Shown here piece after piece: positions 14,244-19,568 of a DNA stretch of 64,000 nucleotides. A program made the position numbers and the translations under genes. Position 1 is the stretch's first letter; each line of letters starts with the position of its first letter. Origin of the DNA: Cirrosporium novae-zelandiae (taxonomy: Eukaryota); NCBI GenBank assembly GCA_026023565.1, contig JAPETS010000002.1:1240001-1304000 (forward strand), given 5' to 3'. The notes beneath the pieces are model-generated. The model ran no database searches and was not told where the DNA came from. It worked only from the letters and a program-made list of their open reading frames with translations.

Positions 14244-14350
<107 letters not shown>

Positions 14351-14768: not shown

Positions 14769-16672
14769 TTAGATCTTAACCGCACTCTCAATCGCCTTCC
14801 TCTTCTTCTCTTGATGAGCAATAGCCTTAGCTCCCATAATCCCTCCACCCCAATGTCGGCGGGACTCCTCATACTTGTCTGTATACCCTTCCTTGACGGT
14901 AGAAACAAGTTTCGCGAGCTCGGATTTGTCTTCGCCGCGTACTTCGGTGAGGGAGACGACGGCTGCGGTCTTCTTGTGCACGAGGGTGCCTAGGCGCGCT
15001 TTTCCTTTTATGATGGCGTAGGGGACGCCCATTTTTCGGCAGAGGGCGGGGAGGAAGACTACTAGTTCGATGGGGTCGACGTCATTTGCGATTAGCTAGG
15101 AAGGGGGTGGGGTTAGTATTTTGGATGGATGGGTGGGGATTGAGTTGGGAGGTGGGGGTTGAAGGGGGAACGTACAACGAGGGAGGTCTTCTTGTTTTCG
15201 ATTAGGCCGACGACGTGGTTCAAGCCGTATTTAATCTGAGGGGTATATGTTAGTTATGGGCCGGTTCATTTGGTTTGGTTTGACATTTGTCATTTTGGAT
15301 GATGGGGGAGGGTTGTGGGGGGTACTGACAACATATGGCTTCTTGCTAACGTCTTCGGCTTTCTTGCCCTGCATGAAATTATTAGCGTTTGTTTCAACTT
15401 TTTTGGTGGATGATGCGGGAAAAAGAACTACCTCTTGGATAGCTGAGGCTTCCTTGGTCAATCTTTCTTTCTTTTCCGTCTTCGATTCTGGCCTATATTT
15501 GCTGAGGAGCTTGAATGCCTGGGCGGCGGTGTTGCGGTCGAGGACGTGGCCTAATTTCATACAATGTGAACTTGCCGTCCAAAGCAACAGATACAAGGTG
15601 TGTGAATCTTACTGAATTCTGTTTTACGGTTAGCATTCCGTTGGACGACTAGGGTAAAAATGGGAAGACTCACGGGCAATGGCAGGGGGAACCTTCAATC
15701 TCATGTCTACACATATTGGTTAGGATTTCCCGATTGCCGTAGGAGGTAGGCAAAACACACTGAGGATCCTAAAGTAGACGTTTAGTAATTAATTTCTTGT
15801 TGGAAGGGGGAATGGGACACTCACTTTCGCTGGCGTTGGAGGCGGACATATTCTGGCCACTTTACCATACGCTGGATAGGGAAGGAAACGTTAGTTGACC
15901 TCAAAGGGTGAAGGAGGACACGGATGATACACACCGACAAGTTTCGTTTAGGCTGAATATCTTGACCGATTCCAAAGTTTTTGGAACGCTTCTCGGAGAG
16001 GGGGTTCTTTGCCTGCTTCTGCAAAAAGCTCAATCTAGTGTTCTTTGAAGAACATATTGGAGGTCATTGAGAGCTAGCTGTACCTTTGAAGCGCCGGCCT
16101 TGCCTTGAGGAAAGCTACACACCACATAAGCAGATAATCAAATATGATAACCTGCCAGACTTACGGCGCCGCGGCGACTTTTTTTCCACTCTTAGCGGGT
16201 GCCTGCAGTAGACCCAAGACCCGTCAGCAAAATCAATCACTCAATCGGTGTCTTGTTTTAAGAGGTCGTTGCTAATGAGAACAGCGACCGAACGATGATC
16301 GAGGGAAAAGGCTCTTGGCTCTGTAAAACTATCCAATTGTTTAGTAATCAAGTACTTTCATACCAGAGTTAATTAGGAGTGTCATACCTCTTTGAAACCA
16401 ACAGCTAGTATTTTTGAGTCTCAAGCTCTTTCCCCTCGACCATCGAAACGTTCGCATGTCCTCCAGGCGTCTTCTCCATTGCTAACACAGAGACCTTGTT
16501 GCCAAGGCATGCGAGAGCTCCGGTGGGACTCAAGAATACATGATGAATGTTGGAAAGATGGATATGTCGAAAACATTGTGGGAAATGTAGGTTGGACTGA
16601 AGTCGTGCCGTAGGAAATGGATCCTCATGGCGATGACATTGAATGCAAAACGAGGTTCGGCTTGCTTACCAT
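14769..16672 (-). CDS. RPL8: 60S ribosomal protein eL8 (L8/L7a), 12 exons
   Basis: Spliced product [31 protein letters not shown]...[53 protein letters not shown]...[22 protein letters not shown]...RHWGGGIMG. Eleven GT-AG introns; exon 1 codes only ATG (16670-16672). Confidence 0.96.
16264..16540 (-). ncRNA. Structured RNA element inside RPL8 intron 1 (cis-regulatory element or intronic ncRNA, class unknown)
   Basis: 18-bp helix 16428-16445/16293-16310, 13-bp helix 16527-16539/16408-16420, CCUUG-GCAA-CAAGG tetraloop hairpin 16494-16507, hairpin 16264-16289. Confidence 0.6.
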
Positions 16673-16840
16673 TTTTGCTGAATGTTAGTAGTCGTCTGGG
16701 TGGAAACGAGAAATTGAAGTTGGACAGTGGAGAGGAATGGAACAGAGTTGTAATCATGAAGGTTAGATTTTGGTTGTGTGAAATTTCGCGCCAAGACTTT
16801 GCGGGCTGTTTACCTCGCTTTGAACTTTGCCTATTTTGTC

Positions 16841-18621: not shown

Positions 18622-18858
18622 AGCTCTGTGAGTATTCACCTCCCTTTACCCCATACTTTTGCTAATAACTATCGCAGCTTTGCCTTTTGGCTTAGATCAA
18701 GTGTAGTATCTGTTCTTTTCAGTTTAATCTCTGAAATGGTTCTAAGGAACCAAACATTGATTAATCTTATTTTTGGCATTGGTGAGAATGGCCTCTGTGC
18801 TTGCGCATGTCTTCTTACACTGTGTCCCTGGTATTACACTACCTCCAGGTGACGCGAA
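18622..18858 (+). ncRNA. U2: U2 spliceosomal snRNA, interrupted by a spliceosomal intron (18628-18677)
   Basis: CTTTGCCTTTTGGCTTAGATCAAGTGTAGTATCTGTTCTTTTCAGTTTAATCTCTGAAA (stem I, branch-pairing GTAGTA, stem IIa), Sm site ATTTTTG near 18769-18775, stem-loop IV CCTGGTATTACACTACCTCCAGG. The exact 5' and 3' ends are approximate. Confidence 0.95.
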
Positions 18859-18965
18859 TTCTATCTTTTCATCATCTACTTCGGCTTGTCTGGAGATTTG
18901 GGGAAGAGGGTTTTTGAGTGACGAGATTTGTGATCAGGATGTGATGAGACGGAAATTCTCGCTTA

Positions 18966-18969
<4 letters not shown>

Positions 18970-18997
<28 letters not shown>

Positions 18998-19014
18998 AGT
19001 GTGAGTGTGTGTGT
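18970..19014. repeat. (GT)n microsatellite
   Basis: Read directly. Confidence 0.9.
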
Positions 19015-19568
19015 CCTTTTTATGGGAGCCGAATTGTTTTAACCTTTACATAGACCCACCTCACTGCTGCTTTGAATCCTTCTCATATTAGCTACTCTCG
19101 ACTTTATTCTAAAAAACAAGAGAATATACGGCCAAGCAAGCAGCCTACTTACCCATGTATGAAAATATCATAGTGAGGAATAGATGATAGAGATAGATGT
19201 CTTTCTTTCGTAAAAATCGTATATAATTCTTTTCAATAAATAATAATAACGAATTATGGATATCTCTCGTAAAGATGCATGCTAATAATATATAGACTAT
19301 ATATATACAGACAAGCAGACTAAAATAATGCTATATCTTATCCTTCTTCGAAGAAAGCCGGATGGATGGATAGCTTTCTTTTCTAAATAACCCGTATACT
19401 GTACTTGTATCTGTATCCCTCTCCGAAAAACGCCATGCCGAAAACTGACCGGAGGTATATCCATTCGTTCCCAACCACAGTCACTTTATCCACGCACACA
19501 CACGCACATGACAATCGGAGTAGCCCTCTTTTTTATCCATCTCCGCCCCCATTAAATTTAAATCAAAA

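Follow-up and report, generated by a model that had tools for sequence, protein, structure and literature searches.

A conserved three-way RNA junction that encloses the 3' splice site of the eL8 first intron, and its putative expanded variant in Cirrosporium novae-zelandiae

The stretch of DNA analysed here, called the window throughout, comprises 64,000 nucleotides (nt) of Cirrosporium novae-zelandiae (GCA_026023565.1, contig JAPETS010000002.1, positions 1,240,001 to 1,304,000), and it carries the gene for ribosomal protein eL8 (yeast RPL8, human RPL7A). Our subject is the first intron of this gene, the transcript of which is predicted to fold into a three-way junction around its own branch site and 3' splice site. 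Coordinates are positions of the window, and all eL8 and intron-1 features lie on the minus strand. The gene model has 12 exons and 11 introns and encodes a complete eL8 protein. The last exon matches Pfam Ribosomal_L7Ae, showing that the L7Ae RNA-binding domain is present in eL8, and it also matches Protein Data Bank chains named '60S ribosomal protein L8' (E 1e-51). The parts of the gene are as follows.

16670-16672, minus strand: exon 1, the ATG alone, followed by GTAAGC
16203-16669, minus strand: intron 1, 467 nt (gene model)
14769-16202, minus strand: exons 2-12 (gene model), including two micro-exons

If intron 1 is retained, a stop codon is reached after 15 codons, at 16627-16625. The remaining ten introns are 50-94 nt each, about 640 nt in total. 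The micro-exons, of 8 nt (15768-15761) and 6 nt (15618-15613), are both required for the conserved eL8 protein sequence. For comparison, metagenome contigs were scanned with the last-exon protein, which gave 80 related loci that are 64-86% identical in that exon and include no close relative of the window lineage. With its 11 introns the window gene is far richer in introns than any of these 80 loci, which carry 0-227 nt of extra sequence in the coding sequence (CDS).

Thermodynamic folding alone gave, as the minimum free energy (MFE) structure, a three-way junction inside intron 1 (16468-16201, taking in the first two bases of exon 2), with the same topology as that found in the relatives below. 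Its features, with those of the P2 tip, are listed in the order of the transcript; here and below a slash marks a splice junction.

16464-16468, minus strand: P1 5' strand, GCCUG, which pairs with 16205-16201 in the MFE structures
16277-16463, minus strand: P2, a 187-nt hairpin with GAG opening and CUC closing as in relatives, containing an 18-bp helix (folding)
16428-16445, minus strand: 5' arm of the 18-bp helix, purine-rich (folding, inverted repeat)
16311-16427, minus strand: P2 apex, 117 nt, with two small sub-hairpins, a 14-nt direct repeat and a possible GAAA-capped mini-hairpin
16321-16387, minus strand: a 67-nt GT..AG unit in the P2 apex, a candidate intron
16293-16310, minus strand: 3' arm of the 18-bp helix, pyrimidine-rich (folding, inverted repeat)
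16268-16276, minus strand: junction strand J23, AUUAGCAAC (folding)
16258-16260, minus strand: premature TAA, reached when the ATG is joined to the acceptor at 16321 (translation)
16211-16267, minus strand: P3, in which GACC, an 8-nt bulge and CAAGAC pair with GUCUUG-GGUC
16228-16223, minus strand: branch site GCTGAC, in the P3 loop
16201-16205, minus strand: P1 3' strand, CAG/GC, which spans the productive 3' splice site and runs two bases into exon 2

Across four sequence contexts the pair probabilities were 0.73-0.98 for P1 and 0.81-1.0 for P3; those of the seven basal P2 pairs were 0.95-0.99, and those of the 18-bp helix were at least 0.98. A 281-nt region had a z-score of -5.85 on the transcribed strand, with none of 200 shuffles as stable, and of -2.55 on the antisense strand. 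Both the helix and the fold as a whole exceed chance.

The 18-bp helix had been named in the first-pass annotation of this DNA, and folding confirmed it: 16445-16428 pairs with 16293-16310 with two G-U pairs, and at the DNA level the arms form an 18-nt inverted repeat that is 89% complementary. Such a repeat could have come from a MITE-like (miniature inverted-repeat transposable element) insertion in the P2 loop, tolerated and functionless, given that 18-nt terminal inverted repeats flank a 117-nt AT-rich core and that, within the motif, it is P2 whose length varies freely. We consider this origin improbable. A search of the 64-kb window allowing up to 3 mismatches gave no further copy of the helix arm, and no clear target-site duplication was seen by eye, TT on both sides being the most that could be found. 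Further, only in the transcribed strand do the two mismatched positions of the repeat become G-U pairs, and folding is far better for the sense than for the antisense strand.

The stem had also been taken to belong to a structured RNA, and the related loci bear this out, since the eL8 intron-1 fold is conserved in many fungi and encloses the branch site. In 43 of the loci, representing 37 distinct sequences, GT comes directly after the ATG, the commonest intron-1 start being ATG/GTAAGC as in the window, and intron 1 is 202-358 nt. The 3' 125 nt of the intron are strongly conserved, and RNAalifold, run unguided on 16 well-aligned relatives, predicted the P1, P2, P3 three-way junction. P1 is formed by GGCU and AG/CC, so that the 3' splice site is itself paired along with the two exon bases after it, an arrangement present in 31 of 31 rows of one alignment and in 47 of 54 rows of a larger one. 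P2 is a hairpin with GAG opening and CUC closing, variable inside and with a GNRA-type cap in the rows inspected by eye. In P3 a purine-rich strand pairs with the pyrimidine tract, and the loop holds GCUGAY, the sole branch-site candidate. A covariance model built from the 16-relative alignment matched 61 of 74 related loci (E 9e-34 to 0.2), always on the plus strand, which is the sense strand as the loci were oriented by their eL8 match; all 54 loci that were searched again matched at E ≤0.05. In the 54 rows, 93.2% of cells were paired, versus 46.8-63.2% when the partners were slid, and 25 of 33 pairs varied on both sides, values reached by 0 of 500 shuffles. The three-way junction in eL8 intron 1 is conserved across many fungi, with strong covariation.

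Two groups of loci depart from the usual arrangement. In L052, L053, L061, L064, L065 and L067 the motif-bearing intron lies in the 5' untranslated region, about 100-350 nt upstream of the ATG, with ACG/GTAAGC in place of the ATG, and a new ATG has arisen a few bases downstream of the conserved ..ATGACAG/CC acceptor. Judged by these sequences, the start codon of the six loci has moved and the intron and its RNA fold have been kept. In L022 (3342-3492) and L036 (1020-1186) the AG in P1 is mutated (CUGCC and CGCC), and 35-45 nt downstream there are a new branch site and acceptor, so that the motif can persist without a splice site inside it. Rfam has no family for the eL8 intron element, and its scan gave no family in the window intron 1 at E ≤1 and no match in a relative. 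An intron-hosted small nucleolar RNA (C/D or H/ACA) was considered on the same searches and rejected; in addition, the sequence preceding the CUGA is variable or missing in the relatives, where the CUGA is the only branch-site candidate.

How closely does the window follow this motif? Its P1 is a compensated variant, GCCU:AGGC versus the consensus GGCU:AGCC, and one relative, L032, has the same variant, with GCCU paired with AG/GC and exon 2 starting GCACCA. The window's J23, AUUAGCAAC, together with the preceding UUCUC resembles the relatives' UCUC-UUUAG, a likeness judged by eye and carrying no statistic. P3 is the only part of the window that models of the relatives detect: the hairpin at 16255-16215 was the best partial match (R1, E 1.3; R2, 6.4 bits and E 0.088; 571-nt search space), and nhmmer with the relatives' 3' block gave E 0.014 at P3 in the same search space. 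The relatives' UUUAGAG and AAUGAYAG/CC junction strands are not present in the window, which has AUUAGCAAC and UACUG instead. Nor does the window have the short GNRA-capped P2 of the relatives, its P2 of 187 nt being about five times longer than those of 54 relatives (24-52 nt, median 35). We infer that the window structure is homologous to the relatives' motif and is an extreme variant of it, with P2 expanded, junction strands changed and P1 compensated. The 18-bp helix would then be the core of the P2 arm, expanded to 187 nt and presumably homologous with the relatives' P2. The mapping of the window onto the motif follows topology, and was preferred over a full-length mapping by MAFFT and the covariance model, in which UUUUACAGAG and UUCUCAUUAG are placed on UUUAGAG and CUCAAUGAYAG; the full-length covariance-model alignment scored 0.6 bits (E 3.5), which is chance level, and this alternative was set aside. 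Directly upstream of P1, the stretch 16541-16473 (minus strand) looks by eye like a partial duplicate of the 5' part of the motif, with UUCUUGAG, a hairpin and GUCUCU..UUAG..GGAGAAGAC; its predicted stability is unremarkable (z = -0.56), and it goes undetected by every model.

On this evidence and that which follows, the reading we prefer, to which we give a probability of roughly 55%, is that the 18-bp helix is the core of an expanded P2 in a conserved eL8 intron-1 junction that regulates the splicing of this intron, and that the 67-nt unit at the P2 tip is a by-product.

The 67-nt unit had been described in the first-pass annotation as a nested intron or a poison 3' splice site, and its signals are as described. 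The donor, GAG/GTATGA, has its GTATGA at 16387-16382; the branch-like TTACTAAAC at 16347-16339 is identical to a 9-mer at 15788-15780 in intron 5; and the acceptor TTTTACAG at 16328-16321 is followed by AGCCAAG. Folding also agreed that excision of the 67 nt lets a 7-bp hairpin form across the junction. In the MFE structure the donor sits in a small loop, the branch-like sequence in a weak, G-U-rich hairpin and the AG at the base of a helix. The splice signals of the unit equal or surpass those of most real eL8 introns, and comparison with chance is ambiguous, depending on the stringency of the filter. Under a loose filter (GTNNG, a CTRAY-like branch, YAG, 45-100 nt) a unit was present in 65% of shuffles of intron 1 and in 19% of shuffles of the 117-nt P2 tip, and a fully internal GT..AG unit was found in 4 of 37 introns of relatives. 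Under a strict filter, which was picked post hoc with the unit already seen, the figures were 5.1% and 1.5%, the 67-nt unit alone passed within intron 1, and only 3 of the 10 genuine short eL8 introns passed.

Excision of the unit alone, from 16387 to 16321, as an intron nested in intron 1 and perhaps gained recently in this intron-rich eL8 lineage, would shorten P2. We hold this to be possible but doubtful. Besides the strict-filter result, it is favoured by the length of the unit, which at 67 nt is within the 50-94 nt range of the gene, by the branch-like 9-mer shared with intron 5, by the placing of the donor in a predicted loop and by the contrast of ten CDS introns of about 640 nt with the 0-227 nt of extra sequence in relatives. 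Apart from the post hoc choice of the strict filter and the 19-65% of shuffles that satisfy the loose one, it is opposed by the partial pairing of the branch-like sequence and acceptor in the MFE structure, and by two comparisons. First, no further copy of the unit or of the helix arms exists in the 64-kb window, where the best other match to the unit is 11 nt, so that there is no sign of an introner-like element; a repeated, introner-like origin was rejected for want of this second copy. Second, a counterpart of the unit was sought in the P2 of the 54 relatives, which include no close relatives, and none was found in these hairpins of 24-52 nt.

Two other ways of using the unit were examined and set aside. 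It is not a stwintron, as it interrupts no signal of the outer intron: the donor at 16669, the branch site at 16228-16223 and the acceptor at 16204-16203 are intact, and the GAG/AGCC joint creates no signal. A 27-nt in-frame cassette, 16320-16294, with a GTTCGG donor at 16293, appears unlikely, given that the donor is weak and that the nine residues are absent from all relatives examined. We return to the view that the unit is most likely a by-product of a lineage-specific expansion of the P2 tip, and that its use in splicing is to be regarded as a candidate only. The donor lies in one copy of a 14-nt direct repeat of the P2 apex (GGTATGA... twice; repeat family D5). By eye the second copy can form a GAAA-capped mini-hairpin near 16365-16354, like the usual P2 cap, although forcing this mini-hairpin costs 4.3 kcal/mol over the MFE. 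The placing of the donor in the repeat and the likeness of the second copy to a P2 cap suggest that duplication at the P2 tip may have produced the GTATGA incidentally.

The acceptor of the unit might instead be used by itself. The first-pass annotation noted that the ATG joined to the acceptor at 16321 runs into an early stop, and translation gave 21 residues followed by the TAA at 16260-16258. In such a scheme P1 and P3 would mask the productive site, the donor at 16669 would be joined to the exposed acceptor at 16321, and the product, stopped after 21 codons, would be subject to nonsense-mediated decay (NMD); the feedback loop proposed below would gain a route through alternative splicing coupled to NMD. 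The pairing of the productive 3' splice site and the strength of the internal branch-like sequence and acceptor fit this scheme, as does the nematode orthologue rpl-7A, for which the available portion of the published account gives unproductive isoforms under homeostatic control (PMC4937301). We nevertheless think a poison site unlikely. The P2 of the 54 relatives holds no equivalent of the 16321 acceptor, and the AG at 16322-16321 is at the base of a predicted helix. The relatives do have a conserved UAG/AG, but it sits in J23, not in P2, and reads ACGAG in about 8 of 54 rows, counted by eye; on these sequences it is not conserved as an acceptor.

A combined scheme is also conceivable, in which a decoy intron was gained at the P2 tip: the junction, most plausibly with eL8 bound, would mask the productive branch site and 3' splice site, the exposed internal branch site and 16321 acceptor would be used or the 67 nt excised, and simple retention would give way to a premature-stop isoform. 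We assign this scheme a low probability. If true, it would be a case of an RNA structure choosing between two 3' splice sites in the transcript of an L7Ae-family protein's own gene.

Evidence on the fate of intron 1 came from the relatives. There are 19 motif-bearing contigs in which the coding region is uninterrupted by introns. L018, for example, is 95.4% identical to the genomic L016 over 1528 alignment columns and is without its 51-nt CDS intron, and intron 1 is kept; the same pattern was seen for L035 and L026, L054 and L061, L045 and L041, and L005 and L003, respectively. In total, L018, L035, L054, L045, L055, L069, L005, L034, L037, L056 and L062 are short contigs from which the CDS introns of the closest genomic counterparts are gone and in which intron 1 is present whole or in part. 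Such contigs look like transcripts that are otherwise spliced and retain intron 1, and their recovery suggests that intron-1-retaining eL8 transcripts are abundant in environmental samples.

The retention bears on one further explanation. Stems are able to compact long yeast introns and bring the donor closer to the branch site, and the junction and long P2 of eL8 might act in this way, raising splicing efficiency, with the 67-nt unit irrelevant. In its favour, the length of intron 1 exceeds that of the other introns of the gene several-fold, in the window (467 versus 50-94 nt) as well as in relatives (202-358 nt), and P2 loops out about 190 nt. Compaction does not, however, account for a fold in which the 3' splice site and the sequence beyond the branch site are base-paired, where hindrance is expected, nor for the otherwise spliced, intron-1-retaining contigs of several relatives, and the sequence of the junction strands is conserved far beyond what compaction needs. 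It therefore seems to us a poor candidate.

Given a conserved fold upon the 3' splice site and branch site, and retention of intron 1 in relatives, autoregulation at the level of splicing is plausible. Folding and stabilisation of the junction would reduce access to the branch site, the pyrimidine tract and the 3' splice site. The stabiliser would most plausibly be free eL8, an L7Ae-family RNA-binding protein; the analogies with L30, archaeal L7Ae and nematode rpl-7A, set out below, support eL8 itself as the effector. With these sites masked, intron 1 would be retained, translation would stop after 15 codons and output would fall, giving a negative feedback loop of eL8 on its own splicing. Binding of eL8 to the junction, and the regulation of splicing that would follow, are putative. 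If the spliceosome does recognise the 67-nt unit, its removal would leave the junction and the messenger RNA (mRNA) unchanged. An autoregulatory splicing switch had been among the first-pass proposals. The part of it that stands is a conserved structured RNA that pairs the 3' splice site, together with relatives that retain the intron; the specific nested and poison forms of splicing found no comparative support.

A number of points weigh against the preferred reading. With default filters neither covariance model finds the window at E ≤10, and with filters off (16150-16720, 571 nt) there was no full-length match above 1.3 bits. Similarly, nhmmer with the relatives' 5' block or with the whole profile finds nothing in the window intron, and blastn of intron 1 against the related loci finds nothing, the best E being 0.51. 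As no model match is significant, homology of the window fold rests on topology, short blocks recognised by eye, one P1 variant and the weak P3 match. Within the relatives, the covariation counts were made on an alignment fitted to the model, and P1 is nearly invariant, so that P1 itself shows little covariation. Some of the contigs with an intronless CDS may come from lineages truly without CDS introns, the 3.5-kb L073 for example. As to the by-product, the unit passes a filter met by 3 of 10 real introns and matched in 1.5-5% of shuffles, and its donor is in a predicted loop. Finally, the available part of Li and Breaker 2017 (PMC5640933), where a candidate motif of this kind was published, contains no experiment on the motif, and neither binding nor regulation is known to have been demonstrated.

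Other features of the window were noted in passing. A complete U2 small nuclear RNA gene lies at 18671-18863 on the plus strand (Rfam, 153 bits, model positions 1-192 of 192). The nested-intron proposal had been likened to an intron in this U2 gene; the match spans model positions 1-192 uninterrupted, and the U2-intron parallel is therefore not seen within the modelled part. Downstream of U2, a SCARNA7 match at 18891-19112 was rejected, as it scored 18 bits versus a cut-off of 65 and aligns over a (GT)n-rich simple repeat at about 18960-19010 (plus strand). Downstream of the eL8 gene, at about 14255-14345 (minus strand), is an (AGT)n trinucleotide repeat, roughly 90 nt long.

To our knowledge, autoregulation of ribosomal proteins by way of structured introns has been worked out in few cases beyond budding yeast. 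The motif in the eL8 intron occurs widely among filamentous fungi and, in the published text available, has appeared previously only as a candidate of unknown function. What is new here is that the first helix of the motif contains the 3' splice site, that the branch site is in a hairpin loop and that the intron is retained in otherwise spliced, transcript-like contigs of several species; together these three observations lead to a concrete, testable mechanism. The window, as an extreme variant, shows which parts of the motif tolerate change, namely the length of P2, the junction strands and, with compensation, P1. Were the 67-nt unit spliced, it would be a rare nested or decoy intron within a regulatory RNA fold; were it not spliced, it would serve as a reminder that convincing splice signals in a structured intron are no substitute for RNA evidence.

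The eL8 intron-1 junction is probably the published candidate motif rpl7-L8-S3, a match made by way of the published description and not by alignment. According to the available portion of that description, rpl7-L8-S3 is a candidate structured RNA located for the most part in introns of L7/L8 ribosomal protein genes of Pezizomycotina, of unknown function and suspected of binding a ribosomal protein (Li and Breaker 2017, BMC Genomics 18:785, PMC5640933). Among the papers searched, the name was found only in Li and Breaker 2017, and Gao et al. 2021 (PMC8216456) make no mention of RPL8, L7Ae or a kink-turn. As far as the available text goes, the description fits P2 plus P3 of the junction rebuilt from the 54 relatives; it says nothing of a P1 that pairs the 3' splice site. 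The window differs from rpl7-L8-S3 in its roughly fivefold longer P2 and its other junction strands, and in going undetected by the models.

In a stwintron, as portrayed in the accessible parts of three reports, an internal intron interrupts the donor, branch point or acceptor of an outer intron and is removed first (PMC6616335, PMC8469720, PMC12403724). The window resembles stwintrons in having a candidate U2-type intron nested in another intron of a fungal gene, and differs from them in that no outer signal is split. For C. elegans rpl-7A, which encodes eL8, the available text describes unproductive, NMD-coupled isoforms in homeostatic control and an alternative intron that is unusually conserved (PMC4937301). 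The protein family member is the same as in the window; the intron and the element are different, and the acceptor of the window is not conserved in relatives.

The mRNA of archaeal L7Ae carries a kink-turn in its own leader. In the portions of the sources available, targets identified by RNA immunoprecipitation sequencing suggest translational regulation by archaeal L7Ae (PMC5539422), and L30 is described as binding kink-turns in its own pre-mRNA and mRNA (PMC3706390). Archaeal L7Ae is a homologous protein, but its control is translational and not of splicing, and its element is a simple kink-turn and not a three-way junction. A kink-turn consists of a three-nucleotide bulge, tandem sheared G-A pairs and an adjacent Watson-Crick stem. 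One candidate in the window, at the UUU bulge 16448-16446 of the long stem, was rejected because by eye no G-A pairs follow the bulge. A canonical kink-turn could likewise not be fitted by eye to the junction; the strands of the relatives hold conserved GA dinucleotides.

In yeast RPL30, binding of the protein to a first-intron element that overlaps the 5' splice site blocks splicing. The eL8 fold departs from this system, which uses the 5' splice site and a kink-turn, in enclosing the 3' splice site and branch region within a three-way junction, and in that binding by eL8 is putative. Like RPL30 (L30e), however, eL8 is an L7Ae-family protein whose own transcript has, in its first intron, a structured element that overlaps a splice site.

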